DNA from: Scyliorhinus canicula
Taxonomy: Eukaryota
DNA: 64,000 nt
Assembly (NCBI RefSeq): GCF_902713615.1
Contig: NC_052149.1
Coordinates: forward strand, 127,227,256 to 127,291,255
Direction: 5' to 3'
Position 1 is the first letter of the stretch. The number at the start of each line of letters is the position of its first letter. Under the pieces are notes generated by a model that saw nothing but the letters and a program-made list of their open reading frames with translations, was not told the DNA's origin and did not search any database. This document shows, piece after piece, positions 1 through 56,099 of the stretch. The position numbers and the translations under genes are program-made.

Positions 1-1279
1 ACGGGGTCTCGGTTTTCCAACGGGAAACGGACCGAATGGTTGACCGGTACGGGCTGAGGGCCAGTTTTCCATACCTAGACAATGTCACTATCTGCGGCCA
101 CGATCAGCAGGACCATGATGCCAACCTTGCCAAATTTCTCCACACCGCCACTCTCCTCAACCTAACTTATAACAAAGAGAAGTGCGTGTTCAGCACGACT
201 CGCTTAGCCATCCTCGGCTATGTGGTCCAGAACGGAGTTCTAGGGCCTGATCCCGACCGCATGCGCCCCCTCATGGAACTCCCCCTCCCCGACTGCCCCA
301 AGGCCCTCAAACGTTGCCTGGGGTTCTTTTCTTACTACGCCCAGTAGGTCCCCAATTATGCAGACAAGGCCTGCCCACTCATCCAATCCACTCTTTTTCC
401 CAGAACGGCCGAGGCTCACCAGGCCTTCAACCGGATTAAGGATGACATCGCCAAGGCCGCGATGCATGCAGTCAACGAGACGTTACCATTTCAAGTCGAG
501 AGCGATGCATCAGACGTCGCTCTAGCCGCCACTCTCAACCAGGCAGGCAGGCCCGTGGCATTCTTTTCACGAACCCTTCATGCCTCTGAAATTCAGCATT
601 CTTCCGTCGAAAAAGAGGCCCAAGCCATCGTTGAAGCTGTCGGCATTGGAGGCATTACCTGGCCGGCAGGAGATTCACTCTGCTCAGTGACCAACGGTCA
701 GTAGCCTTCATGTTCAACAACACACAGCGGGGCAAGATCAAAATTGATAAAATCTTGAGGTGGAGGATCGAGCTGTTCACCCACAACTACGAGATTTTGT
801 ATCGCCCCGGTAAGCTCAACGAGCCCCCCGACACCCTATCCCGAGGTACATGTGCCAGCGCACACGTGGACCGACTCTGGACTCTACACGACAACCTTTG
901 TCACCCGGGAGTCACACATTTGTACCACTTCATCAAGGCCCGCAACCTGCCCTCCTCTGTCGACCCGTTGGTTGAGAGGGTACAGGTACTCCACGCCAAC
1001 CCACAGTACGCCTGTGTAGCGTACCCCGATGGCCGCCAAGATACTGTCTCCCTCAGGGACCTGGCACCAGCTGATTCCACACACACACACACCCCTCCGT
1101 TCCGGCGCCATCCTCCCCTCACCCGGCGCACCCAGCTGCAACCCCTGCCCACGCCCGAGGATGACGAGGATTTCGGCATGCTCCCGGAGTCACCAAGGAC
1201 CAGACCGACACCGGAATCGCTGCCACCACTGCGGCGCTCCCAACGGCAGATCAAGGCTCCGGACCGACTGAACCTGTAA
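1..1279 (+). mobile_element. Gypsy/Ty3 LTR retrotransposon pol remnant (RT C-terminal part, RNase H, integrase with catalytic core deleted); runs off the left edge
   Basis: ORF track shows YLDNVTICG (RT), FQVESDASDVALAATL and YRPGKLNEPPDTLSR (RNase H), and HDNLCHPGVTHLYHF (IN zinc finger) joined directly to DPLVERVQVLHANPQYA. The protein closely resembles the element at 50961-55726. Stops and frameshifts are present. Confidence 0.93.
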
Positions 1280-1426
1280 CTTGTTCAGGATTCGTAAATC
1301 ACCATATATATATATTCTGTATAATTCTCCTCCACCCCGCTGGACTCAATTTTTTTCCCTGTACGTTAAAACTTCTACTTGTATATAGTTCTCCACCACC
1401 TCCCCCGGACTCAATTTTAACAGGGG

Positions 1427-1651
1427 GTAGTCACCACTGTTGTATATATTAGGTGATTTGTGGTAAGGCCCTGTACTACAGGTACAGGGGTAGTACCCTG
1501 CCTGCTGGCTCCGCCCAGTAGGCAGAGTATAAATATGGGTGCTCTCCGTACAGCAGCCATTTCGCCAGCTGCTGTAGGAGGCCACACATCTTAGAGTAAT
1601 AAAGCCTCGATTGCATCCAACTCTCATCTTTGTGTAATTGATCGTGCATCA
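1427..1651 (+). repeat. 3' LTR of the Gypsy element at 1-1279 (left boundary approximate)
   Basis: Follows the PPT-like ttttaacaggggg; contains GC box ggctccgccc, TATAAATA 1528-1535 and AATAAA 1598-1603; ends ...gtgcatCA at 1651. Confidence 0.75.
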
Positions 1652-6249: not shown

Positions 6250-6633
6250 TTATGTGTTGGGCACTGTGGACTTGTGAAGCAGACATATGCCACCAACACT
6301 GAAGAAGGTTCAACACTATTTTATTAACTGTTATAAAATAATAGACATACTATAACTGTGGGTTTAAACAATGCTAGTTTAACTAGAGACCTGTGCCTGT
6401 CCGAACCAGTTGAATCTCTCAGCACGTGGTGAGAGTCCGTACTGTAACTGATGAGCTCTTGTGCTTCTGAGAGGCAGCATCCAGAATGAGCGGGAAAAGT
6501 GATGCCATCTGCCTTTATAGTGCATGTGTTCTAACTGGTGATTGGCTGCAGTGTTTGTGCATGTTGATTGGTCCAAGTGTATGTCCATCAGTGTGTGTGT
6601 CTGCACCATGATATGCTGGTGTATATTATGACA
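6250..6633 (-). repeat. 3' LTR of Gypsy 6250-13544, with polypurine tract at 6634-6646
   Basis: Direct repeat of 13161-13544; the adjacent tcccccccttttt reads AAAAAGGGGGGGA on the minus strand. Confidence 0.93.
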
Positions 6634-6965
6634 TCCCCCCCTTTTTAAAAAAAATTGATGTGAATGTGTGACAATAAATAGTGTGGATGTGTGAAGAATG
6701 TTCCTCACTACATGTGAGGTGCAAAGACATATGGACAAATCTATGTACAGGAAAACAAAACTATATACAAGGGAAGGTGCCTGGTGCAGATAATTAGTGT
6801 GCAACAAATTGAACAAGAACAGTGCTCTATACAAGCCACTAGAAAATTAGTTAACAGGGAAGGAAACATCTCAGAGAGTCCATAAATTTGCAAAGTTCAT
6901 AAATTCAATCTCTGAGGTGGGCAACGAACTCTGGTTGACCGCCTCAAGGGTAGGTCGATAGCCGC

Positions 6966-7997
6966 CAGGTCAGGAGCTGGGCGGGCTGCAGCACAGTCAG
7001 GGGGAGGCAGAGTGACCGGAAGCTCTGCACAGTCCATGGCAGGGTCAGCGGAGGGGCTGGGTGGGCTGCAGCACAGTCAGGGGGAGGCAGAGTGACCGGA
7101 AGCTCTGCACAGTCCATGGCAGGGTCAGCAGAGGGAGGCAGAGTGACCGGAAGCTCTGCACAGTCCATGGCAGGGTCAGCAGAGGAGCTGGGTGGGCTAC
7201 AGCACAGTCAGGGGGAGGCAGAGTGACCGGAAGCTCTGCACAGTCCATGGCAGGGTCAGCAGAGGGGCTGGGTGGGCTGCAACACAGTCAGGGGGAGGCA
7301 GAGTGACCGGAAGCTCTGCACAGTCCATGGCAGGGTCAGCAGGGGGAGGCAGAGTGACCGGAAGCTCTGCACAGTCCATGGCAGGGTCAGCAGAGGAGCT
7401 GGGTGGGCAGCAACACAGTCAGGAGGCAGAGTGACCGGAAGCTCTGCACAGTCCATGGCAGGGTCAGCAGAGGGGCTGGGTGGGCAGCAACACAGTCAGG
7501 GGGAGGCAGAGTGACCGGAAGCTCTGCACAGTCCATGGCAGGGTCAGCAGAGGAGCTGGGTGGGCAGCAACACAGTCAGGAGGCAGAGTGACCGGAAGCT
7601 CTGCACAGTCCATGGCAGGGTCAGCAGAGGGGCTGGGTGGGCTGCAACACAGTCAGGGGGAGGCAGAGTGACCGGAAGCTCTGCACAGTCCATGGCAGGG
7701 TCAGCAGAGGGGCTGGGTGGGCTGCAACACAGTCAGGGGGAGGCAGAGTGACCGGAAGCTCTGCACAGTCCATGGCAGGGTCAGCAGAGGGGCTGGGTGG
7801 GCTGCAACACAGTCAGGGGGAGGCAGAGTGACCGGAAGCTCTGCACAGTCCATGGCAGGGTCAACAGAGGGGCTGGGTGGGCTGCAACACAGTCAGGGGG
7901 AGGCAGAGTGATCGGAAGCGCTGCACAGTCCATGGCAGGGTCAGCAGGGGGAGGCAGAGTGACCGGAAGCTCTGCACAGTCCATGGCAGGGTCAGCA
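6966..7997. repeat. Minisatellite inside the Gypsy pol 3' end: 51-bp core with optional 26-29-bp insert (80/77/51-bp periods), 14 cores
   Basis: agtccatggcaggg recurs at 7031, 7111, 7162, 7242, 7322, 7373, 7450, 7530, 7607, 7687, 7767, 7847, 7927 and 7978. Confidence 0.95.
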
Positions 7998-9203
7998 GAT
8001 GAGCTGTTCGGAGGATCCCGTGACGACTGTGGAACAAGGCGAAGGGCACGCCGATTGCAGCGCCGAATGGACCCGTCTGGTAACCGAACCAGGAAGGAAT
8101 GGGGGGCCACCTGCCTAAGGACAACAGCAGGTGCAGACCAGCCACCATCCGGTAGATGGATGCGAACCGTCATTCAGCTGGATGTCGGGGAGATCAGCAG
8201 CACTTGAGTCGTGTGTCACCTTTTGCTATGCCTGAGATGCCTGTATCTTGTGGAGCACGGGAACATGATCAAGATTCGGGGTGTGAATCGACGGCACCGT
8301 CGTCCTGAGGGTGCGGTTCATCAGCAACTCTGCAGGTGACAGCCCAGTGGAGAGCGGGGCGGAGCGATAGGCCAACAAAGCTAGATAGAAGTCAGATCCG
8401 CATCGGCAGCCTTGCAGAGTAGCCTCTTGACTATGTGAACCCCCTTTTCTGCTTTGCCATTGGACTGAGGGTACAGGGGACTGAATGTGACGTGTGCGAA
8501 GTTGTACTGCCGGGCAAAGCTGGCCCATTCCTGGCTGGTGAAGCAGGTGCCATTGTCCGACATCACTGTGAGCGGGATGCCATGCCGGGCAAATGTTTCT
8601 TTGCAAGCCCGAATGACAGTAGAAGAAGTGAGGTCGTGCAACCTGATGACCTCCGGGTAGTTAGAGAAGGAATCAATGATTAACACATAGTCCCTGCTCA
8701 ATGCGTGGAACAGGTCAATGCCCACCTTGGTCCAGGGCGATGTGACCAACTCATGGGGCATCAGGGTCTCCCGTGGTTGGGCGGGTTGAAACCGCTGGCA
8801 GCTGGGGCAGTTGAGTACCGCATTGGCGATGTCATCGTTAATGCCCGGCCAATAGGCAGCTTCCCTGGCCCTGCGGTGACATTTTTCAACACCTAGATGG
8901 CCTTCGTGCAGCTGCTGTAGGACCAGCTGGTGAATGCTGTGCGGGATCATGATGCGGTCTAGCTTCAGGAGAACCCCATCAACGACTGCCAGATCGTCAC
9001 AAACATTGTAAAACTGTGGGCATTGGCCCTTGAGCCACCCGTCCGTCATTAGGGGCATGACACGCTGTAGTAGGGGATCAGCCGCTGTGTCACAGCGAAT
9101 TTGTACCAGGCATTCAACCGATGCTGGCTAGTGGGAAGCTGCGAACTGAACTTGAGCATCGACCTGGCAAATGGACCCTTCGTGATCGCTTGGAGTGGTG
9201 ACC

Positions 9204-10273
9204 GGTGCTATGTCTTTTCGTCCGACGTCATTTCGTCCAACGACACTTCGTCCACGTCTTTTGGTCCAACGTCTTTTTGTCCACCCGTCTTTTGGTCCAA
9301 CGTCACTTCGTCCAATTATCCAATTACAAATAGTTTTATTTAGTTTTTCAATGTTACTGCTCAAGGATCCTCTCCACCTATTTCGCATCTTGAGGTTGAG
9401 TTCTGCATTTGTGCTGCTTGATCTCCAGACATTATTAAAATCGCTTATTGTCACGAGTAGGCTTCAATGAAGTTACTGTGAAAAGCCCCTAGTCGCCACA
9501 TTCCGCTGCCTGTCCGAGGAGGCTGGTACGGGAATCGAACCGTGCTGCTGGCCTGCTTGGTCTGCTTTAAAAGCCAGCGATTTAGCCTGGTGAGCTAAAC
9601 CAGCCCTCTCCAGACATTATTAAGATAAGCTGCAGGATATTCACCCATGTATGCTCCAGCGTGATGAGAGCCATTGTATCTGATGGAATATTTGATCATT
9701 TCAGACCTGTAATGTCAGAACCCACTGCCAACCAGAGGTTTTAATCACTCGACGAAAATCGAGTTTAAACCTGCTTCTTTCAGAACTGCACTCATTGTCT
9801 AAATCCAATTAGACTCCCACTTATATCTGTGTCTGTCGGAATTGTAGAATATCAAATCATCTTGTCCTCTCCCCATTATTCTCTCTCGGGTACAGTTCTG
9901 GAAATCTAACTTTTAGGGAATTTCGGGAATTTACAATTTACATCAATTTTAAGTAATTTCGGGAATTTTAAGTAATTAGTCAACTTTTAGATTTTTTAAC
10001 TGCATTTTTAGATTTTTTAACTTTTTAACTGCATTTTTCAACTTGCATTTTACTTGCATTTTATCAATTACTTGCATTTTAGCAATTAAATTCACTTGCT
10101 GTATTGTACTTGCATTTTATCAATTAAATGGTTTTATACGGAGTTAATTTGTTTCGGATAATTGGACGAAGTGACGTTGGACCAAAAGACGGGCGGACAA
10201 AAGGACGTTGGACCAAAAGACGTGGACGAAGTGTCGTTGGACGAAGTGACGTCGGACGAAAAGACGCGACACG
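9204..10273. mobile_element. Non-autonomous DNA transposon (Mutator-like MITE) inserted in Gypsy pol
   Basis: Internally repetitive TIRs of about 118 bp (9204-9321 / 10156-10273); 9-bp TSD gtggtgacc at 9195-9203 and 10274-10282; AT-rich non-coding interior. The superfamily is inferred from the 9-bp TSD and long TIRs. Confidence 0.85.
9439..9606 (-). mobile_element. Short tRNA-derived SINE (family A) inserted in the MITE, 17-bp TSD
   Basis: TSD tctccagacattattaa at 9422-9438 and 9607-9623; same family as 14030-14209, 50150-50312 and 56518-56704. Confidence 0.88.
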
Positions 10274-13140
10274 GTGGTGACCGACCTAGAGAGGCCATCG
10301 GCAATGACAAGGTCTTTGCCAGGGGTATAAACAAGTTGGAAATCATACCTCCGGAGCTTGAGCAGGATGCGCTGGAGGCGAGGCGTCATATCATTCAAGG
10401 CCTTTTGTATTATGTTGATGAGCGGACGATGGTCGGTCTCGACAGTAAACTGAGGAAGTCCATAAACATAGTCGTGGAACCTCACGACACCGGTCAGAAG
10501 GCTGAGGCACTCCTTCTCTATTTGCGCGTAGCGCTGTTCCGTGGGGGTCATTGCCCACGACACATACGCAACAGGGACCCATGACGAGGCCTCATCATGC
10601 TGAAGAAGCACGGCTCCAATGCCAGACTGACTGGCCTCCGTATAGATTTTCGTTTCCTTGGTTGGATTGAAAAAAGCCAGCACTGGGGCTGTGGATAGCT
10701 GTGTTCCCTCCACTCGAGCTCGTGGGCAGGGAGCCACTGGAAGTCCGTTGTCTTTCGAACCAGGTTCCTGAGAGCCGTGGTATGCGAGGCGAGATTGGGA
10801 ATAAACTTTCGTAGGAAGTTTACCATGCCCAGGAACCGGAGGACCGCTTTCTTGTCCTCGGGCGTTTTCATGGATGTGATGGCAGCAATCTTGTCCTAAT
10901 CCAGCCGCACACCCAAATGGGAAATATGATCACCCAGGAATTTAATGTCCGATTGGCCGAAAGAGCATTTGGCCCTATTGAGGCGGAGGCCATGTTCGTG
11001 AATGCGCTTGAAGACGCACATGAAGGTGGCTGATGTGCTCCTGCGGGATAGTGGACCAGATTATTATGTCGTCGACGTAGACACGGACGCCTTCGATTCC
11101 CTCCATCATCTGTTCCATTATTCTGTGGAATACTTTGGACACCGAGATGATGCCAAATGGCATTCGGTTGTAGCAGTATCTGCCAAAGGGCGTATTGAAT
11201 GTACACAGCTTTCTGCTCGATTCATCCAGCTGGATTTGCCAGAAGCCTTTTGAGGCATTGAGTTTTGTGACGATTTTGGCAAGGGCCATTTCACACGTGA
11301 GTTCCTCACGCTTGGGAATCGGGTAGTGCTCCCTCATGATATTCCGATGAAGATCCTTAGGATCTATGCAAATTCTCAGCTCACCGGACGGTTTCTTCAC
11401 ACAGACCATGGAACTCACCCAGTTGGTCGGTTCCGTGACTCTGGAGGTGACCCCTTGGTCCTGGAGGTGCTGGAGGTCCTGGAGCTGTTGCTTGAGGCGG
11501 TCCTTAAGGGGCGCTGGGACCCTGCGAGGTGCGTGTACCACAGGCGTTGGGCTTGAGTAGAATCTTGTATGTATACGGGAACGTGCCCATGCCCTCGAAG
11601 ATGTTGAGGTAGTGTTGGATGATGGTGTCGAGTTGTGCCCTGAAGTCGGTGTCAGGAGAGGCAGACGCGTCGCTGGGAGAGAGAGAGTGAACCCTCTGCA
11701 CCAACTTCAGCAGCTTATATGCCTGCGCACCAAGCAAGGAGGCTTTCGAGGCGGCAACGATCTCAAAGGATAGTACAGCTGTGTGAGCACAGTGCGTCAC
11801 CTCGAGTTGGCAGGAGCCACTGGCAGCGACGGCATTTCCGTTATAATCAAGCAGTTGGCATGCAGAAGGCAGGGTGGCAGGCTGGACACGGAGGCTGCGA
11901 AGGTCAGACGACGCAATGAGATTAGCGGAGGCGCCAGTGTCCAGGCGGAACCTCACTGGGGACCGATTGACCGTAAGGGTGGCACACCACTCATCACCTG
12001 GATCAATTGTATTGGAATGGGTTTGGTGCTGCGCTTTGGAGACATCCTGTACTTGGTTATGATGCCGACTTGGAAAGGGGCTTGCAGGTCATCGCTGTCA
12101 AAGTTGGCAGACAGGTCTGGGACAGGCTCATTCAGTGTGGGCTGAATGGCCCGGACATCCCTGCGGGTCTGGCTGGATCTCCTGAAACTAGCAGGCTGAG
12201 TCGACCTGCATAAAGCAGCATAGTGGCCAAGTTTGCCACACTGCAGACTGCGTCGGGTCTTCACGGGACATTGTCGCTTTAAGTGGGCGGAGCCATAGTT
12301 GACGCACGCCATTGCGTCGGCGCGTTCGTTACGCCACAGCGCATGCGTGGTACGATCCAGCGTGGTGCTTGCCTGCCCAGTACGTTCCTCGATGTCACCA
12401 CGTTTGTTGCGTCCCAGCGCGGGAGCCCGCGAAAAGCGCGCAAAATGGCCGCCTTCGTCCAGACTTAGGCCCTGGAGAGACTTAATAACCTGGACCCGTT
12501 CTGCCTCATGGGGAGTTTGCCGTGCCGTTTCAGCAGCCTGGATGCGGGAATATCGCGTGGAGGCGTACTCATGGAACACGCAGGTCTCTATGTCAGTGGA
12601 CAGGGTGAGCTGCTTGACTTTAAGAAGCTGCTGGCGAAGGGGCTCCGACTGCACACCAAAAACTATCTGGCCACGTATCATGGAGTCAGAGGTGGACCCG
12701 TAGTTGCAGGACTGCGCAAGGACACGGAGGTGGGTGATAAACGACTGGAAAGGTTTGTCCTTACCCTGTAAGCGCTGCTGAAATATATATCGCTCGAAGC
12801 TCTCGTTTACCTCGACCTCGCAGTGGCTGTCGAACTTTAGGAGGACCGTCTTGAACTTCGATTTATCCTCCCCGTCAGCGAAGGTGAGCGAGTTAAAGAT
12901 GTGGAGGGCATGGTCCCCAGCTGTGGAGAGGAAGAGAGCAATCGTCCGTGCATCCGAGGCAGCTTCCAGGTCCATGGCCTCGAGGTACAGCTGGAAGCGC
13001 TGTTTAAAAATCTTACTGTTGGAGGCCAGGTTGCCGGCAATGCGGAGGGGCGGCGGCAGGCGAACGCTGTCCATATTGCAGGATGGCTGAAGACTGGTGG
13101 AAGGCTGATCACTGGAAGGTAGGTCTCAGAAGTACTAACA

Positions 13141-13160
13141 TCCCTCAACTACTGGTACCA
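13141..13160 (-). promoter_or_regulatory. tRNA primer-binding site (TGGTACCAGTAGT..., resembles the complement of the tRNA-Leu(TAA) 3' end)
   Basis: Starts with TGG immediately after the 5' LTR. The tRNA identity comes from my recall of vertebrate tRNA-Leu(TAA) ending ...CTGGTA-CCA and was not searched. Confidence 0.7.
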
Positions 13161-13544
13161 TGAAGTGTTGGGCACTGTGGACTTATGAAGCAGACATATG
13201 CCACCAGCACTGAAGAAGAGTCAACACTATTTTATTAACTCTTATAAAATAGTAGACATACTATAACTGTGGGTTTACACAATGTTAGTTTAACTGGAGA
13301 CCTGTGCCTGTCTGAACCAGTTGAATCTCTCAGCCCGTGGTGTGAGTCTGTACTAAACTTGAAGAGCTCTTGTGCTTCTGAAAGGCAGCATCCAGAATGA
13401 GCGGGAAAAGTGATGCCCTCTGCCTTTATAGTGTGTGTGTTCTAACTGGTGAATGGCTGCGGTGTTTGTGCATGTTGATTGGTCCCTGTGTATGTCCATC
13501 AGTGTGTGTGTCTGCACCATGATATACTGGTGTATATTATGACA
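13161..13544 (-). repeat. 5' LTR of Gypsy 6250-13544
   Basis: TG...CA ends; direct repeat of 6250-6633. Confidence 0.93.
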
Positions 13545-14029
13545 TGCTCCACCATTGACTGAGCTGGCCGTCTCCTAAAGGACATAACTGTTAGACTGGG
13601 TCGGCGACAGGTTCCGAGGGAACCAACAAGAGGGGAAAACATATTGAACCTCATCCTCATCAACCTGTCTTCCACAGCTGCATCTGTCCATGCCAGTATT
13701 GGTAGGAGTGATCACAACAAAGTCCTTTTGGAGACAAAGTCCCATCTTCACATTGAAGAAAATCTCCATTGTGCATGGCACTGCCACCATGATAAATGGA
13801 ATAGACTTTGAATAGATCTAGCAGCTCAAGGCAGGGTATCCATGAGGCGCTTTGGGTCATCAGCAGCAACAGAATTTTATTCAACCACAATCCATAACCT
13901 CATGGCCTGGCATATCTCCCACTCTACCATTACCACCAAACCAGGGGATCAACCCTGCTTCAATGTAGAGTGCACGAGGGCATGTCAGGAACAACACCAG
14001 GCATAGCTATAAATGAATGAAATGAAAAT

Positions 14030-33454: not shown

Positions 33455-34625
33455 CACATCTCTCACTGCACCTGACACTAGGAAACGGTCAATACCGTTT
33501 TACTGCACCGTGTCTCTCTCTGCACCTGACACTAGGAAATGGTCAGTATGTTTTACTGCACCAGGTCTCTCACTACACCTGGCACGAGGAAACGGACAAT
33601 ACCTTTTTACTGCACATGTCTTTCACTACACCTGACACTAGGAAATGGTCAATATGTTTTACTGCACCAGGTCTCTCACTACACCTGGCACGAGGAAACG
33701 GACAATACCATTTTACTGCACGGGGTCTGTCACTACACCTCACACTAGGAAACGGTCAATACCGTTTTACTGCACCGGGTCAGTCACTACACCTGACACT
33801 AGGAAACGGTCAATACCGTTTTACTGCACCGGGTCTCTCACTATACCTGACACTAGGAAACGGTCAATACCGTTTTACTGCACCGGGTCAGTCACTACAC
33901 CTGACACTAGGAAACGGTCAATACCGTTTTACTGCACCGGGTCAGTCACTACATCTGTCACTAGGAAACGGTCAATACTGTTTTACTGCACCAGGTCTCT
34001 CACTACACCTGACACTAGGAAACGGTCAATACCGTTTTACTGTACCGGGTCAGTCACTACACCTGTCACTAGGAAACGGTCAATACCATTTTACTGCACC
34101 AGGTCTCTCACTACACCTGACACTAGGAAACGGTCAATACCGTTTTACTGCACCGGGTCTCTCACTGCACCTGACACTAGGAAACGGTCAATACCGTTTT
34201 ACTGCACCGGGTCTCTCACTACACCTGACACTCGGAAACGGTCAACACCGTTTTACTGCATCGGGTCTCTCACTGCACCTGACACTAGGAAACGGTCAAT
34301 ACCGTTTTACTGCACCGGGTCTCTCACTACACCTGACACTCGGAAACGGTCAATACCGTTTTACTGCACCGGGTCTCTCACTGCACCTGACACTAGGAAA
34401 CGGTCAATACCGTTTTACTGCACCAGGTCAGCCACTACACCTGACACTCGGAAACGGTCAACACCGTTTTACTGCATCGGGTCTCTCACTACACCTGACA
34501 CTAGGAAACGGTCAATACCGTTTTACTGCACCGTGTCTCTCACTATACCTGACACTAGGAAACGGTCAATACCGTTTTACTGCACCATGTCTCTCACTAC
34601 ACCTGACACTAGGAAATGGTCAATA
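33455..34625. repeat. 54-bp minisatellite, about 21-22 copies, each with an internal 7-bp inverted repeat
   Basis: Unit cctgacactaggaaacggtcaataccgttttactgcaccgggtctctcactaca; the ORF track shows an 18-aa periodicity. Confidence 0.95.
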
Positions 34626-34929
34626 ATGATTTATTGCACTGAGTCACTCAATCTGAAGCGGAATAAATGAAACAATTTTACAACGAATGACATTCATTAA
34701 TAAGTTTAGAGAGCTCTTTCTTGACATGATTGAAATTGTTGCCAATATTATCGGCATGATGGAAACCTTGGCCAAGGATAGTTTCAGAGGTGACAATCCC
34801 AGCAATGATAACAGTAACAGCTTTCACAGATATTCATTGCTGAACAGGACATGGAGAGATAAGAAAACCTCAACTGATGAAATACAAAATCAGTTCATTT
34901 ATCTCACGTCAAACCCATACTTGGGTCGA

Positions 34930-35545: not shown

Positions 35546-35724
35546 CCTGTGTACACGGAATGGATTGTGACGCATGATGTACCTGTGTACACAGACTGGA
35601 TTGTGAAGAGTGTCTTCATTGGTAACGAGTCATTTTTTAAATTGTAAAAGTGTTATTTCGCTGATCGTCATGTGAAAAATTTTTTTTGCTTCTGTTGCAG
35701 CCTTGTACATTTTCATTATACTCC

Positions 35725-36898
35725 AGTCGGACACTCAGAGGGAGGGATGGAGCTCAGGGAGGTGTGTATCTGAGAGGAAGGTCGGACACTCAGAGGGAGG
35801 GATGGAGCTCAGGGAGGTGTGTATCTGAGAGGAAGGCCGGACACTCAGAGGGATGGAGCTCAGGGAGGTATGTATCTGAGAGGGAGGTCGGACACTCAGA
35901 GAGATGGATGGAGCTCAGGGAGGTGTGTATCTGAGAGGGAGGTCGGACACTCAGAGGGAGGGATGGAGCTCAGGGAGGTGTGTATCTGAGAGGACGGTCG
36001 GACACTCAGAGGGAGGGATGGAGCTCAGGGAGGTGTGTATCTGAGAGGAAGGTCGGACACTCAGAGGGAGGGATGGAGCTCAGGGAGGTGTGTATCTGAG
36101 AGGAAGGTCGGACACTCAGAGGGATGGAGCTCAGGGAGGTGTGTATCTGAGAGGAAAGTCAGACACTCAGAGGGAGGGATGGAGCTCAGGGAGGTGTGTA
36201 TCTGAGAGGAAAGTCAGACACTCAGAGGGAGGGATGGAGCTCAGGGAGGTGTGTATCTGAGAGGGAGGTCGGACACTCAGAGGGAGGGATGGAGCTCAGG
36301 GAGGTGTGTATCTGAGAGGGAGGTCGGACACTCAGAGGGAGGGATGGAGCTCAGGGAGGTGTGTATCTGAGAGGAAGGTCAGACACTCAGAGGGAAGAAT
36401 GGAGCTCAGGGAGGTGTGTATCTGAGAGGAAGTTCGGACACTTAGAGGGAAGGATGGAGCTCAGGGAGGTGTGTATCTGAGAGGAAGTTCGGACACTCAG
36501 AGGGAGGGATGGAGCTTAGGGAGTTGTGTATCTGAGAGGACGGTCGGACACTCAGAGGGAAGGATGGAGCTCAGGGGGGTGTGTATCTGAGAGGAAGGTC
36601 GGGCACTCAGAGGGAAGGATGGAGCTCAGGGAGGTGTGTATCTGAGAGGAAGGTCGGACACTCAGAGGGAGGGATGGAGCTCAGGGAGGTGTGTATCTGA
36701 GAGGAAGGTCGGACACTCAGAGGGAGGGATGGAGCTCAGGGAGGTGTGTATCTGAGAGGAAGGTCGGACACTCAGAGGGAGGAATGGAGCTCAGGGAGGT
36801 GTGTATCTGAGAGGAAGGTCGGACACTCAGAGGGAGGGAGCTCAGGGAGGTGTGTATCTGAGAGGAAGGTCGGACACTCAGAGGGAAGGTTGGAGCTC
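35725..36898. repeat. 55-bp purine-rich minisatellite (51-bp variants), about 21 copies
   Basis: Unit gtcggacactcagagggagggatggagctcagggaggtgtgtatctgagaggaag. Confidence 0.95.
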
Positions 36899-37308
36899 AT
36901 GTACACAATGTCCATTGTCCATTACCCACTAATGACACTCCGCCTACATTCAACTCATTGTTTAAGCTCCAGCCCACCTCCTGTTCCTATCCATATGTTT
37001 CAGTCAAGGAGCCAGATAAGCCTACAGTACAGGAGGAGGCCATTCTGCCCCTCGGGTCTGTGCTAGCTGTTTAATAGAGTCATTCACAACTAACATCTTA
37101 GTTTAATGTCTGTTGTGCGGAAGTGACTGGAATCTGATTAGATACAAAATGAGTGAGAAATATGAAGTCAGACATGTTTAACTAATCTGGTTACATTTGT
37201 TAATGAGGTCACGAATGTGGTAGGTAAGGGAATGTATGTGGATGTTATTTGTATGGATTTCCAGAATACATTCCAAAAGATTCCACAGGAGTGGCTGTTA
37301 ATAAAATT

Positions 37309-47899: not shown

Positions 47900-49850
47900 C
47901 TTCCTTTGTGCTGGGTATGACTCCAACCAGCGGAGAGTTTCCCTCTGATTCCCATTGACTCCAGTTTTGCTCGGGCTCCTTGATGCCAAACTTGGTCAAA
48001 TGCTGCCTCGAGGTCAAAGGGCAGTTACTCTGGCCTCACCGCTGGAGTTCAGCTCTTTTGTCCATGTTTGAACCAAGGCTGTAATGAGGTCAGGAGATGA
48101 GTGACCCTGGCAGATCGCAAACTGAGCGTCAGTGAGCAGGTTACTGCTGAGTAAATGCGACTTGATAGCAGGGTCGTTAACAACACCAATCATTTTCCCG
48201 ATGATTGAAAGTTGACTGACGGGCAGTAATTGTCCTGATTGGATTTGTCCAGATTTTTGTGGACAGGACACACCTAGGTAATTTTCCACATTGTTGGGTT
48301 GATGCCTTTTTTTGTAGCTAAACTTAAACAATTTCGCTAGGGGTACATCCTGAACACAAGACCATAAGAAATAGGGGCCAGAGTAAACCATTCGGCCCAT
48401 CGAGCCTGCTGCACCATTCAATACGATCATGACTGATCTTGGTCTTCAACTCTATTTTCCTGCCATTCCCTGTATCCCTTAATTCCCTGAGAGACCAAAA
48501 ATCTATTAATCCAAACTTGGAATATATTCAACAATGGAGCATCCAGAACCCTCGGGGTCGAGAACTCCAAAGATTCACAATCGTTTGAGTGAAGAAATTT
48601 CTCCTTCTCTCAATCCAAAATGATCGGCTCCTTACCCTGAGACTGTGACCCTGTGTTTCCGATTCCCCGACCTGCGGAGACAATCTCTCAGCGTCTACAC
48701 AAGTCTGGAACACAAGTCTTCAGTACTACTGGGGGGATGATGTCAGGGCCCAGAGTATTCGCAGTATCCAGGGCCTTCAGTACTACTGGGGGGATGATGT
48801 CAGAGCCCAGAGCATTCGCAGTATCCAGGGCCTTCAGTACTACTGGGGGGATGATGTCAGAGCCCAGAGCATTCACAGTATCCTGGGCCTTCAGTACTAC
48901 TGGGGGGATGATGTCAGGGCCCAGAGTATTCACAGTATCCAGGGCCTTCAGTACTACTGGGGGGATGATGTCAGGGCCCAGAGCATTCGCAGTATCCAGG
49001 GCCTTCAGTATTACTGGGGGGATGATGTCAGGGCCCGGAGCATTCACAGTATCCAGGGCCTTCAGTACTACTGGGGGGGATGATGTCAGGGTCCAGAGCA
49101 TTCGCAGTATCCAGGGCCTTCAGTACTACTGGGGGGATGATGTCAGGGCCCAGAGCATTCGCAGTATCCAGGGCCTTCAGTACTACTGGGGGGATGATGT
49201 CAGGGCCCAGAGCTTTCGCAGTATCCAGGGCCTTCAGTACTACTGGGGGGATGATGTCAGGGCCCGGAGCTTTCGCAGTATCCAGGGCCTTCAGTACTAC
49301 TGGGGGGATGATGTCAGGGCCCGGAGCTTTCGCAGTATCCAGGGCCTTCACTACTACTGGGGGAATGATGTCAGGGCCCGGAGCTTTCGCAGTATCCAGG
49401 GCCTTCAGTACTACTGGGGGGATGATGTCAGGGCCCGGAGCATTTGCAGTATCCAGGGTCTTCAGCGTTTCTTGATATCACGCGGAGTGAATCAAACTGG
49501 CTGAAGACTGACATCTGTGATGCTGGGATCTCAGGAGGAGACCGGGATGGATCATCCACTCGGCACTTCTGGTTGGGCTCCTCCATCATTGAGGATGGAG
49601 ATATTTGTGGAGCCGCCTCCTCCAGTGAGTTATTTAATTGTCCATCAGCATTCACGTCTGGATATGTCAGGACTGCAGAGCTTCGATCTGATCCGTGGGT
49701 TGTGGGATCGTTTAGCTCTGTCTGTCACATGCTGCTTCTGCTGTTTGACACACAGTCCTGTGTTGTATCGGCACCAGGTTGACACCTCATTTTTCAGTCT
49801 GCCTGGTGCTGCTCCTGGCGTGTCCTCCTGCACTCTTCATTGAACTGAAA
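47900..49850 (-). mobile_element. LINE family B fragment, interrupted by a CR1 3' end (48361-48707, 9-bp TSD gaacacaag) and carrying a 57-bp array
   Basis: Similar to 14690-15700 and 40560-41420; TSD at 48352-48360 and 48708-48716. Confidence 0.75.
48721..49462. repeat. 57-bp minisatellite, 13 copies, derived from LINE coding sequence (VLKALDTANALGPDIIPPV)
   Basis: Unit starts at 48721, 48778, 48835, ... 49406; one copy has an extra G. Confidence 0.95.
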
Positions 49851-50765: not shown

Positions 50766-50960
50766 AGATTGGAGATTCCTAATCCTGACCCTCACCCATT
50801 GACTGCACACTCTCAGCCTCCAGGGGTCATGGGGTCATTCAGAGCAGTGACGCTGACTGACCCCTGGACACTAAAACTAATTGTAGCCTCTCGCTTGACC
50901 TCAACCCAATGCTGGGTAGCAAGGATTGAAATTAAATCTAGAACTTTCTACACTGACAGC

Positions 50961-53900
50961 TGATGGAACCATCAAATCACCAGACACGTGTTTCATATGT
51001 GAATCTAGGCTTTAATCGACTTACTTCAGAGTCAGCCTGTTACCTGTCGATGAACTCGTAGTGAACTCAGGCTGACTCTGGACACGGGTATTTATACAGC
51101 TGCACTGGGGGAGGAGTTGTGGGCGGAGCCAAGGGTGGAGCCCAGTACAAGTTCCTGAGTGCTCCCAGCACTACTCCCCCTAATGGTAGGATAGCGTTAC
51201 TGCGCTTACATAGTCAGTGTGAATTAACATATATACATCTATATTACATTCACCACATTCACCCCCTGCAAAAAAAATCAAGTCCGGCAGGGGTGGTGGT
51301 CTAGTCTATTAAGTCAGTCTGTCCGGCGGTCGAATTGTCCGCTGAGATCTGCGGAGCACCGGGGTTGCAGCCTCTTGCGGTGGCTGGATGGGTGTTGTGT
51401 GCTGGGGTACGATGGTGGACTCCAGGGAGGGTTGTATCCGAGCTTCATATGCTCCTGGTTCGACCGGGGACTGGGGGCGCTGGGGGCTGGCCGGCGCGGG
51501 GGCGCGGAACTGGTGGAGCGAGCCCGTGGGCTCGGAAGCGCCGGGGGCGGCAGCATGGGGTGTAGGGTGAGAGGTCCTTCTGTGGGGGTAGAGGGGGCGC
51601 TGGATCTGGCGGGTGCCAGATCCCGGAGGGATACCGTGTCCTGACAGCCGTCAGGGAACTCGACGAATGCGTACTGGGGGTTGGAGTGGAGCAGGCGCAC
51701 CTTTTCAACAAGGGGGTCGGTTTTGTGCGCCCTGACGTGTTTCATCAGGAGTATGGGGCCCGGCGTCCTCAGCCATGACGGAAGTGAGACCCCCGTGTAG
51801 TGCCCCTGGAAAAAATGAAGAGCCTCTCGTGAGGGGTCTGGTTGGTCGCCGTGCACAAAAGGGACCTAATGGCGTGGAGCGCGTCTGGGAGGACTTCCTG
51901 CCACTGGGAGACTTGGAGCTTTCTAGACCGGAGGGTCAGTAGGACGGTCTTCCAGACCATCGCGTTCTCCCTCTCCACCTTCCCGTTCCCCCTGGGGTTG
52001 TAGCTGGTAGTCCTGCTCGAGGCAATGCCCTTTTCGAGCAGGTACTGACGCAGCTCGTCGCTTGTGAAGGACGAACCCCGGTCGCTGTGTACGTAGCTGG
52101 GGAAACCAAACAGGGTGAAGATGCTATGCAGGGCCCTAATGACTGTGTGGGAGGTCATGTCGGGGCGCGGGATAGCGAATGGGAAACGGGAGAACTCGTC
52201 TACGACGTTTAAGAAGTCAACGTTCTTGTTAGTTGAGGGGAGTGGCCCTTTGAAATCAATCGCGAGGCGTTCAAAGGGCCTAGAAGCCTTGACCAGGTGG
52301 GCCCTATCTGGTCTATAGAAGTGCAGTTTGCACTCCGCACAGATCGGGCAGTCCCTGGTGACCGCTTTTACCTCCTCATGGAGAAAGGCAGGTTTCGGGC
52401 CCTGATGTAGTGAGCGAGCCGGGTGGCCCCCGGGTGGCAGAGGTCATTGTGGATGACTTTTAATCTGTCGATCTGCGTGCTGGCGCATGTCCCGCGGGAT
52501 AGGGCATCCGGAGGCTCGTTGAGCTTCCCGGGTCGATATTTGATATCATAATTGTAGGTGGAGAGTTCGATCCTCCACCTCAGAATTTTATCGTTTTTAT
52601 TTTGCCCCTTTGCGAGTCGTCAAACATGAATGCAACCGATCTTTGGTCGGTGATGAGGATGAACCTCCTACCTGCGAGGTAGTGCCTCCAGTGACGGATA
52701 GCCTCCACAATGGCTTGTGCTTCTTTCTCGACTGAAGAGTGTCCGAGTTCTGAAGCGGAGATGGTACGGGAGAAAAATGCAACTGATCTCCCTGCCTGAT
52801 TTAACGTGGCTGCAAGAGCTACCTCTGAGGCGTCGCTCTCTATCTGAAATGGGGTGGATTCATCCACCGCCCGCATGGCCGCTTTGGCGATGTCCTCCTT
52901 GATGCCGTCGAAGACCTGGCGTGCCTCAGGTGACATGGGAAATTGTGTGGTCCTAAAGAGTGGGTAGGCTTTGTCCGCATATTGAGGGACCCATGGGGCG
53001 TAGTAGGAAAAAAACAACGAGGGGGAGGGAGTTCTATGAGGGGGTGCATACGGTCCGGGTCGGGGCCCAGGACTCCGTTTTCCACGACATAGCCGAGGAT
53101 GGCTAGTTTGGATGTGCGGAAAACGCATTTCTCCTTGTTGTACGTGAGGTTCAGTTTCTGTGCCGTCTGGAGAAAACGGTGGATGTTGGAGTCGTGGTCC
53201 TGCTGGTCATAGCCGCAGATGGTGACATTGTCCAAGAACGGAAACGTGGCCCGCAGCCCGTACTGGTCCACCATTCGGTCCATTGCTCGTTGGAACACCG
53301 AGACCTCATTAGTGACGTCGAAAGGGACCCGGAGGAAATGGAAGAGGCGGCCATCGGCCTCGAATGCCGTGTAGTGGCGGTCCTCTGGGCGGATTGGGAG
53401 CTGGTGGTATGCCGACTTCAGATCCACCGTGGAAAGGAGCCGGTACTGGGCGATCTGGTTTACCATGTCTGCAATCCTGGGGAGGGGATACGCGTCGAGG
53501 AGCGTAAATCTATTTATAGTCTGACTGTTGTCGACCACCATGCGGAATTTTTCCCCGGTCTTAACGACCACCACCTGAGCTCTCCAGGGACTATTGCTGG
53601 CCTCTATAACCCCCTCACTGAGTAGCCTTCGGACCTCTGCTCTGACAAATACCGTATCCTGCAGGCTATACCGCCTGCTACGAGTGGCTACGGGTTTACA
53701 GTCCTTAGTGAGATTGGCAAAGAGAGGAGGGGGGGGATTCGCAGCGCAGCGAAGCTCCAGATCGTGAGTGGGGGCAGGTGCCCTCCGAAGGTGAGGGTGA
53801 GGTTCTTGAGTTTGCATTGGAAGTCTAGGCCTAATAAGAGTAGTGCGCAGAGTTCGGGCAAAACATAGAGTTTGAATTTCAAGTAACTAGCGCCTCGGAT

Positions 53901-55726
53901 TGTGAGTGTCGCGGCGGTGCGCCCCTGGATCTGGACCGAATGGGAGCCTGAAGCGAGCGCGACAGTTTGCTGCACGGGGAAAACGGGGAGCGAACAGCGT
54001 CTTACAAGGTCTGGATGTATGAAGCTCTCCGTGCTCCCGGAGTCGAAGAGGCATGGCGTTTTGTACCCGTTGATATTGACCTCTGCCATCGGGTTTCATA
54101 GATTCTTTGGTCGTGATTGGTCCAGGGTGACCGCACTGAGTTGCGGGTAGACGACGGCTCGATCAGCTGTGCTGGAGTGGCCCCGTGATGACTGCTCTCT
54201 GAGTTCATAGTCTAATTCGAATTCCTCCGCTGAGATGTCCGAGCGCGGAGATGCCGATTGGGCCCGTGGATCGCACATGGCGAGCGGCGAGGAAGATGGC
54301 ATCCAAGATGGCGGCCCCCATGAGTCACACGTGGCGGGCGGCGAGGAAGATGGTGTCCAAGATGGCGGCCCCCATGAGTCGCATGTGGCCGGCCGCGTGG
54401 TGGAGGTTTTCCAAGATGGCCGCCCCCATGGATCGCACGTGGCTGGAGGGGGCGGAGTCGGGGCATAGGCCGCAGCGTTTCAGGCCCCGCGGGGCTGCGA
54501 GTGAGGGGAGCGATTACTGCGAGTCGCTGGGGAGTTGGAAGCTGGGGCCCTTTTTGCGAGGCACACTCTTGCGTAATGCCCTTTTCGCCCGCAGCTGCTG
54601 CAGGTCGTGTTGCGGGCCGGGCAGTGCTGCTGCGGGTGCTGGTTCTGGCTGCAGAAATGGCAGGCTGGAACAGCATAGTGGCTGGCTGGAGCAGCATAGT
54701 GGCTGGCTGGAGCAGCATAGTGGCTGGCTGGAGCAGCATAGTGGCAGGCTGGAGCAGCATAGTGGTTTGGCTGGAGCAGCATGGTGGCTGGGCGGCCGCG
54801 TAACACAGGCCTTAGGGGAGTTGCTGGTCGGGGGCCCATGATTGGGTCGCGGGGTCCGCGGGGAATGAGTTAAGGCTGCGGAAGGAGACCTCCATCGTGG
54901 TAGCAGCTTCCACAGTCATTTCTAAGTCCTGGGCCCCCTTTTCCAGCAGTCGTTGGCGCACATAGTTAGACCTGAGGCCCGCTACAAAAACATTGCGTAC
55001 CGCCAATTCCCTGTGTTCAGCCGCGGTTACTGCTTGATAATTACAGTCATTGGACAAATTATTACGTTCTCTTAGGAATTCGGCGAGTGATTCCGTAGGC
55101 CGCTGACGGCGAGTCATGAACACATGGCGAGCGTAAACTTCATTAATGGGCCTTACAGACATTTTTTCGAGAACTGCTAGCGCTGCAGTATATGAACTGG
55201 CCGAGTTTAGTTGCGTAGAGATTCTGTGGCTCACCCTCGCGTGCAGTAGACTTAGCTTCTGATCGTCTGTAGTTTTGGCTGTGCTCGCTTCGGCCGGGTA
55301 GGCCTTGAAGCACCGGATCCAGTGGGAGAAGATTTCTTTAGCCCTGCATCCTGCAAGTTGAGTTCCAGGCGTCCAGGCTTGAGGGCCGATTCCATAATCG
55401 ATCTTTACTGTTCTTAAGTCGATTAAATTGATGGAACCATCAATTCACCAGACACGTGTTTCCGATGTGAATCTAGGCTTTAATCGACTTACTTCAGAGC
55501 CAGCCTGTTACCTGTCGATGAACTCGTAGTGAACTCAGGCTGACTCTGGACACGGGTATTTATACAGCTGCACTAGAGGGAGGAGTCGTGGGCGGAGCCA
55601 AGGGTGGAGCCCAGTACAAGTTCCTGAGTGCTCCCAGCGCTACTCCCCGTAGTGGTAGGATAGCGCTTCTGCGCTTACAAAGACAGTGTGAATTAACATA
55701 TATACATCTATATTACATTCACCACA
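50961..55726 (-). mobile_element. Complete Gypsy provirus in the J-C intron, antisense to IgL, decayed ORFs, 5-bp TSD ACAGC
   Basis: LTRs 50961-51257 and 55429-55726 (about 14 differences by manual count); TSD acagc at 50956-50960 and 55727-55731; PPT at 51258-51269. gag from ATG near 55395, protease LFDSGS, RT (LDAYPLP, FLDNVT), RNase H, integrase (YVHSDRG, GKVERE). Confidence 0.96.
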
Positions 55727-56099
55727 ACAGCCAATCAGAATCCTTTGTGAAATGTGTTGTTCCAAGTCTGCTCGAATGTTCTGGGATAAAGTTTTCCAGA
55801 TCTGTGAGTGATCTGAGGTTTTTTAATGTTCAACCTGTTCCCCCAAACATACTGATCAATAGTACGAGCTTCCTGACTGGTTAACAGTCACTTAAAGGGA
55901 CATTGCGTCTTTAAATGTTCTCAATATTAACCATTTCAGTGCTGAATTTGTAGTAACCTTCTTTACAAATGTTTAAGAAACATTTCAAAATGATTTAATC
56001 GGTTTACACCAAACGTTCCCTCTGACACTGAACCAATTTGAAATGTAAAAGCCGGAATTCTCTGGCCGTTCTGATCCCCGCCATTTGGGGTGATTTCCC

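Follow-up and report, generated by a model that had tools for sequence, protein, structure and literature searches.

Self-complementary primer-binding sites and primer-copy fossils point to a long-primer form of self-priming in an animal Gypsy lineage

Results

A shark Gypsy element whose primer-binding site pairs with its own LTR

We analysed a stretch of 64,000 nucleotides from Scyliorhinus canicula (contig NC_052149.1, positions 127,227,256 to 127,291,255 of the forward strand), hereafter the window. A degenerate Gypsy element lies on its minus strand, with the following features (window positions, with the basis in brackets; a slash within a motif marks the putative cut).

55726-50961, minus strand: whole Gypsy element, with LTRs, target-site duplication (TSD), polypurine tract (PPT) and gag-PR-RT-RH-IN in broken frames
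55727..55731, partner 50956-50960, minus strand: TSD of 5 bp, GCTGT (sequence)
55429..55726, minus strand: 5' LTR, 298 bp, TG...CA, with the tip ...CCATCA at 55429 (sequence)
55557..55564, minus strand: TATA box, in most families conserved 74-86 nt upstream of the arm end (sequence)
55536..55548, minus strand: 5' arm of a conserved U3/R hairpin, in U3 (inverted repeat; predicted fold, z -2.8)
55530..55535, minus strand: putative transcription start, TATA+30..35 (TATA spacing and ends of primer-copy fossils)
55479..55535, minus strand: putative self-primer of ~52-57 nt, its 5' portion unpaired with the primer-binding site (PBS) (primer-copy fossils)
55495..55507, minus strand: 3' arm of the U3/R hairpin (inverted repeat)
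55479..55491, minus strand: candidate primer arm, 13 nt pairing with the PBS, ending in ATTAAA at 55484-55479 (exact inverted repeat)
55478..55479, minus strand: putative cleavage site TAAA/GCC (pairing end in every family; junction fossils)
55429..55478, minus strand: rest of R and U5, with a predicted stem from the GCC after the cut (predicted folds)
55426..55445, no strand assigned: palindromic LTR tip, overlapping the first 2 PBS bases (inverted repeat)
55415..55427, minus strand: self-complementary PBS, 1 nt from the LTR edge (inverted repeat, kept in copies)
54203..55395, minus strand: gag, ATG at 55395, two CCHC knuckles, stops and frameshifts (frames)
52583..53886, minus strand: RT (FLDN here, YLDN in relatives) and RNase H, broken frames (frames)
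51772..52443, minus strand: integrase core, followed by no detectable chromodomain (frames)
51258..51269, minus strand: PPT region preceding the 3' LTR (sequence)
50961..51257, minus strand: 3' LTR, 297 bp (LTR comparison)
1426..1651, plus strand: 3' LTR of the lineage's second family, whose arm differs (LTR comparison)

The TG...CA LTRs, the TSD, the PPT and the PR-RT-RH-IN order place the element in Ty3/gypsy. Its LTRs (298 and 297 bp) differ by 13 mismatches and one gap (~95% identity). No env match was found in the element, and the Gmr1-type gene order, with integrase upstream of RT, is absent, the order being RT-RH-IN. Within gag, a 21-nt tandem repeat (54800-54650) directly precedes the zinc knuckles. 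Elsewhere, the window holds a complete TGG-primed Gypsy (6254-13545, minus strand) with an internal 80-nt tandem repeat (6918-8086), as well as minisatellite arrays of 54, 55 and 57 nt (33459-34765, 35577-36968, 48604-49588).

A sequence-only reading of this DNA had proposed that the post-LTR segment of the minus-strand element is an antisense copy of the poly(A)-signal region of its own LTR. The 13-bp pairing is exact: positions 55427-55415 are the reverse complement of 55491-55479 (100%), and a single A (55428) separates the PBS from the LTR edge. The two 13-nt arms, 51 nt apart, form the top inverted repeat of the region; by arithmetic, the chance of a 13-nt match at that position within a 300-nt LTR is near 1e-5. 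Other details of that reading hold as well. The inverted repeat at the LTR tip is real and reaches 3 nt beyond the LTR edge (9-bp arms 55445-55437 / 55434-55426), the arm, placed about 65 nt downstream of the TATA box, begins 66 nt after it (55564-55557), and the other complete Gypsy has TGG directly after its LTR.

The PBS follows the LTR arm across the genome

The identical post-LTR 13-mer is present in 25 of the 30 nearest copies, and the other 5 carry a single CpG-type change. In the second family (window 1-1651), 10 of the 30 LTR matches are 5' LTRs. As had been predicted for this family, a complement of the family's own arm stands behind each of these, with 1-2 changes in some cases; this arm is a different one, and compared with the window element 4 of the 13 positions differ, in both arms simultaneously.

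For the genome search, the hexamer, the LTR tip and the first six PBS bases were fixed, and one A/T position was left free on each side. This layout pattern gave 6,662 matches in the genome and 0 in the control. Discordant combinations of the two free positions occurred in 35 + 37 = 72 of the 6,662 matches (1.1%), as compared with ~44% expected if the sides were independent, an expectation derived from the 60:30 A/T ratio among 90 copies. Conservation of the hexamer in this genome is uninformative, since the search pattern itself requires it.

Positions -7 to -13, which are unconstrained by the pattern, were compared in 90 of the 100 matches listed among the 6,662. There, the 630 pairs comprise 581 Watson-Crick pairs, 14 G-U pairs and 35 mismatches, and an arm pairs with its own PBS at 6.46 of 7 positions, as compared with 3.62 of 7 for the PBSs of other copies. 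Positions -12 and -13 also co-vary (82/90 paired each), and pairing declines beyond -13 to -16. A perfect -7 to -13 arm occurs in 54 of the 90 copies, with 18 distinct 7-mers scattered across a gag-based tree; the imperfect arms of the other 36, some shared by several copies, count against our best reading. Copies that share a mismatch between arm and PBS (L240, L255, L261 and L270; L245 and L247) may be replicating intermediates or recombinants. A 5' LTR 7 kb upstream of the window (L394) also shows a 13-nt pairing, and may belong to another insertion.

Priming here by a tRNA or tRNA fragment of the host, with the LTR match as mere coincidence, has a vanishingly small probability. No point in its support was found. 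The sequence-only reading had seen no tRNA primer site here, in agreement with our search of the PBS, whose best match was 6 nt among 29 genomic tRNA sequences (5 isotypes). Neither the TGG start nor the tRNA 3'-end match of a tRNA-type PBS is found in the lineage, the tRNA comparison covering those 5 isotypes, and the site varies freely among families, following the LTR of each.

The helix is conserved among distant relatives

To look beyond this genome, we took 80 metagenome loci, of which 42 were assessable (35 were without a gag start and 3 too near a contig end). These relatives are ~44-63% identical in RT. A self-match score of at least 10 was found in 32 of the 42, with matches 10-19 nt long and 26-87 nt apart, and in relatives with both LTRs present the match starts 0-2 nt from the LTR edge. 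Four of the ten non-scoring relatives show the same layout with one mismatch, three have mislocated gag starts and three are unclear; an obvious TGG site is absent from all ten. One relative (L152) has two LTRs yet no pairing, an exception that counts against our best reading. In a quick RT tree, the self-pairing relatives are scattered over the whole clade. Covariation of the post-LTR sequence with the LTR arm, which the sequence-only reading had proposed to look for, is thus found lineage-wide, in the 90 genome copies and in the metagenome relatives. The nearest named proteins come from sharks and rays (73-80% RT identity), followed by coral, sea anemone, damselfly and nematode (56-61%); scans of viral contigs found no relative.

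Of 15 distinct distant families, 13 retain A(-11), 13 retain G(-10) and 13 retain the CC that follows the arm. At -11/-10, distant relatives (L111-L186) have AG and the 90 genome copies W-S, a conservation that pairing alone requires at neither position and that may mark an initiator or an enzyme determinant. A small hairpin, RCC...GGY, starts directly behind the putative cut in L111, L113, L114, L117, L119, L125 and L150. By comparison, a canonical poly(A) hexamer stands at the arm end in only 7 of the 15 families and is absent in 8, and because of this the sequence comparison points to the helix and its end, rather than the poly(A) signal, as the conserved feature.

This bears on the proposal that the pairing hides the poly(A) signal in the 5' LTR, in the manner of the HIV-1 polyA hairpin (PMC2645353), with priming left to another RNA. 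In this genome the whole hexamer does lie within the arm, and the 5' LTR alone is followed by an antisense arm. However, no canonical hexamer is found in the arm of those 8 distant families, L113 and L114 carry a free ATTAAA/AATAAA downstream in U5, and the distance from the end of the pairing to the LTR edge is always 0-2 nt. The junction fossils described below would also be left unexplained, and they largely refute hiding as a sole role. We therefore regard the proposal as highly improbable. The sequence-only reading had offered it as an alternative or additional function: it fails as the main one, the pairing being conserved across the lineage and the hexamer not, and stands as a possible side benefit in the families of this genome, at most secondary.

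Aberrant copies record the ends of a putative primer

In some aberrant copies, the antisense stretch behind the LTR continues into the LTR. Targeted patterns detected 61 such fossils in the family-2 group and 33 in the TAAGT group, to which the window element belongs, and we examined 61/61 and 32/33, respectively. The junction fossils join TAAA to the first minus-strand bases, and in L305 and L315 the switch lies at the first bases after the cut. In L239, the antisense stretch continues through R to an initiator-like CCATTT, 32 nt after the TATA box.

The lengths of the family-2 fossils (n=61) are distributed unevenly: 23 are 28-42 nt, 22 are 43-47 nt, 2 are 48-51 nt, 1 is 75 nt and 13 are at least 109 nt long. 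Twenty-two of the 61 stop within 2 nt of the TATA+32 initiator (initiator A = 45), and only 3 stop in the 61 nt past it (48-108 nt). The per-nucleotide stop rate is 2.9% before, 14.8% at and 0.36% after the initiator (Fisher p 8e-8 and 4e-16, with bins set after the data were seen). Short fossils, nearly all of them behind LTRs whose flanks are unique, jump to a wide variety of internal sites, often at microhomologies. The TAAGT group has 8 short copies with ends between 28 and 54 nt; four reach 54 nt (TATA+31..33). The fossil of L308 and L310 ends at the base equivalent to 55532, and those of L301 and L314, from a sister family, at TATA+31/32. Since L308 and L310 share one junction and thus count as one event, the 5' end of the window family's own primer would rest on this event and two sister-family events.

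These stops are what would be expected if reverse transcriptase had copied a primer of ~45 nt (~54 nt in the window family) to its 5' end. The sequence-only reading had placed the paired segment inside the transcript rather than at its extreme 5' end, and this is supported by the primer copies, which reach 44-47 nt in family 2 and up to 54 nt in the window family and stop at TATA+30..33. Its suggestion of self-priming with a cut just 3' of ATTAAA likewise gains support from the lineage-wide covariation and from fossils that join the arm to the minus-strand start. As judged from these sequences, the primer still appears to be the transcript 5' end, as in Tf1, but longer and with an unpaired 5' part.

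The Tf1 primer is 11 nt long. A similarly short primer, with transcription starting at the A 11 nt (or a CA ~16 nt) before the cut, would require the long fossils to be plus-strand fold-back on the element's own R, stalled at the hairpin loop. The conserved A(-11) and G(-10) of the 13 distant families, often in a YAGT initiator-like context, fit such a start, as do four relatives in which pairing is exactly 11 nt and begins at that A, and snap-back does occur, as the full LTR palindromes L298, L313 and L326 attest. Against it, -12 and -13 co-vary, this genome has a conserved TATA box and initiator further upstream, and the stops pile up within 5 nt at the initiator; as a weaker point, a few short copies (L288, L296, L357) are nearer to a sister subfamily than to their own LTR. 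We consider a short primer unlikely, although it may hold for relatives without a TATA box.

Longer runs, through U3, are seen in 24 of the 32 TAAGT-group and 13 of the 61 family-2 loci. The 24 U3-spanning TAAGT loci comprise LTR palindromes, 8 U5 deletions and fold-back products. The U5 deletions (L307, L309, L316, L318, L324, L327, L328 and L362) remove the sequence between the putative cut site and the palindromic tip, use an AA microhomology, and matched the search pattern because the LTR tip is palindromic. The U3-spanning loci may be read as snap-back products and U5 deletions, and they also fit a primer formed by the RNA 3' end. On that account, the 3' copy of R would pair with the PBS and be cut after TAAA, losing the tail; the arm is indeed present at both RNA ends, and the long fossils read U3-R-arm-T-antisense U5. 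However, 45 of the 61 family-2 copies end at or before 47 nt, i.e., at or before the predicted start, with only 3 in the next 61 nt. In addition, the base of the U3/R hairpin, a structure that would be folded in a 3'-end primer, shows no stop: a looser pattern gave 114 copies, and the hairpin base is no barrier because at most 9 of the 100 copies listed stop at 20-27 nt. A 3'-end primer is accordingly very unlikely, and a primer from the transcript 5' end is the reading that we retain.

Several loci extend the catalogue of products. L322 and L323 carry arm-T-antisense U5 in both LTRs of one element, the outcome expected if minus-strand DNA folded back and copied the attached primer before transfer. 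L308 and L310 represent a window-family variant in which a 54-nt primer copy precedes a second U5 tip and PBS; the two loci are 98.5% identical, and the variant has apparently propagated. L300 has a 31-nt primer copy between its 3' LTR and the host flank, resembling the integrase-independent ends of Tf1.

Predicted leader folds and RNA reads

When folded from the predicted start, 72 of 75 leaders have the arm:PBS helix in their minimum-energy fold or in one tied with it (mean probability 0.91), and in most of 8 folds inspected the U5 stem starts at or just after the GCC behind the arm. With a longer 3' extension, one leader prefers another structure without the helix (z -1.2), which counts against our best reading. 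As compared with the three-duplex 'pretzel' leader of the Tf1/sushi group, the primer helix and inner U5 stem are predicted, and a third duplex is inconsistent across families.

A GC-rich U3/R hairpin (window 55548-55536 / 55507-55495) is conserved in L061-L110, its 5' arm ending at the predicted start. Because this arm lies in U3, the hairpin is predicted for the RNA 3' end alone. Its loop begins, on the 5' side, where transcription is predicted to start, and an effect of the hairpin on the DNA template could mimic the fossil boundary. RNA reads of three runs show read-through of the LTR from both strands, with no start and no tail seen, and a search for poly(A)-tailed retrocopies gave 0.

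Discussion

Our analysis indicates that the pairing is real and lineage-wide, and that it most likely reflects a long-primer form of self-priming. We hold with considerable confidence that the PBS binds a self-primer consisting of the first ~45-55 nt of the element RNA, which would be cut just after TAAA and extended by RT; likely only its last 13-16 nt pair with the PBS. In the model that we propose from covariation, predicted folds and fossils, transcription would start ~31 nt after the TATA box, as the spacing, the initiator motif and the fossil ends suggest. R would fold onto the PBS over 13-16 bp, with the U5 stem at the next base, and the RNA would be cut at TAAA/RCC, a site suggested by the junctions, possibly by RNase H by analogy with Tf1. 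The cut is placed after TAAA because priming needs a 3'-OH on the last A and the next base cannot pair at the LTR edge. RT would then extend the new 3' end over the spacer A into U5, as in the junction fossils; strand transfer would depend on no more than the short segment that separates the cut from the poly(A) site; and plus-strand synthesis would copy into the attached primer. A normal provirus would keep only the paired 13-16 nt, and a longer primer copy is built in for roughly 1-2% of copies.

Self-priming is established for Tf1 and inferred for Tf1/sushi chromoviruses in the parts of PMC10085805 and PMC4600332 drawn on here, and about half of Tf1 cDNA retains a primer copy (PMC11042837). 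Retroviruses inherit primer sequence, and Ty1 and Ty3 copy the PBS (PMC7472051). As described in these Tf1/sushi sources, Tf1/Tf2 of Schizosaccharomyces pombe, Tj1 and the Tf1/sushi chromoviruses resemble the shark lineage in a PBS complementary to their own 5' LTR, and they have three features that are predicted for it: a primer from the transcript 5' end, a second duplex beside the primer helix and primer copied into cDNA (PMC10085805, PMC4600332, PMC11042837). By comparison, the shark lineage has no chromodomain, two CCHC knuckles and a conserved U3/R hairpin, and its arm ends at a TAAA/RCC motif, often overlapping the poly(A) hexamer. Its putative primer is ~45-55 nt long, with the last 13-16 nt paired and fossil copies reaching 44-47 and 54 nt. 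Judged from its sequences, the lineage would work like Tf1 yet differ from Tf1/sushi in its missing chromodomain and its longer putative primer. The HIV-1 polyA hairpin also holds a hexamer in its stem, whereas the pairing here is long-range, at the PBS, and not tied to a canonical hexamer across the lineage.

Mag elements use tRNA priming. The shark lineage differs from them in YLDN/YMDN in RT and the absence of a tRNA PBS. What it has in common with the Mag lineage (Mag, SURL, Gulliver and Hydra2-1, with Micropia/mdg3 for the gag type) is the double CCHC, compactness, no env and an aquatic-animal range; two CCHC arrays in the nucleocapsid are described as the Mag/Micropia type in PMC2577118, and they occur in gag of 60 of 62 long relatives and of the window element. 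No match to a chromodomain or SH3_Tf2-1 was found in 22 relatives, none is listed for 120 homologues and none follows IN in the window frame. Of the PF24626 loci in this genome, 19 of the 20 read are IN-before-RT elements, the last being unreadable in that frame, and no element of the sushi type was seen among them. Gmr1-like RTs of this genome are 21-27% identical and form a separate branch in the quick RT tree; the Gmr1-like family (IN before RT; L211-L230) is abundant, with 7,135 first-look candidates. As a lead only, the LTR start of the shark lineage resembles the CsRN1 motif tabulated in PMC3601003. The lineage could be among the mollusc clades described in PMC6238403; neither PBS nor primer occurs as a term in the main text of that paper, and its readable supplements gave no motif match.

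For the plant TAR copia lineage (Houba, Osr-1) and the Tcn1 clade, self-priming has been predicted from LTR complementarity 0-5 bp from the LTR edge, as given in the cited part of PMC6317226; these predicted self-primers belong to another superfamily or a chromovirus clade, in plants. In the literature searched, mostly at title and abstract level and including PMC6934838, PMC2864245 and PMC5006619, we found no self-priming in an animal non-chromovirus Gypsy. On balance, we lean slightly towards the broader view that a large animal Gypsy lineage outside the chromoviruses, ranging from corals to sharks, evolved self-priming independently of Tf1, that a long capped leader would serve as primer, cut at a conserved TAAA/RCC helix junction 11 nt from a conserved AG, and that failed replication products in a vertebrate genome map both primer ends with no experiment needed.

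The literature, in the parts drawn on here, treats Ty3/gypsy self-priming as a mark of Tf1/sushi chromoviruses. tRNA independence appears to have arisen repeatedly, given a second animal lineage that is abundant, with at least 6,662 copies in a single genome, and would use a different primer. Annotation based on the PBS would miss such elements, and over-copied primers would offer a general route to start site, primer length and cut site from genome sequence. The shark lineage also raises the testable question of how RT handles a mostly unpaired primer. Such elements would, moreover, escape silencing by PBS-targeting tRNA fragments.
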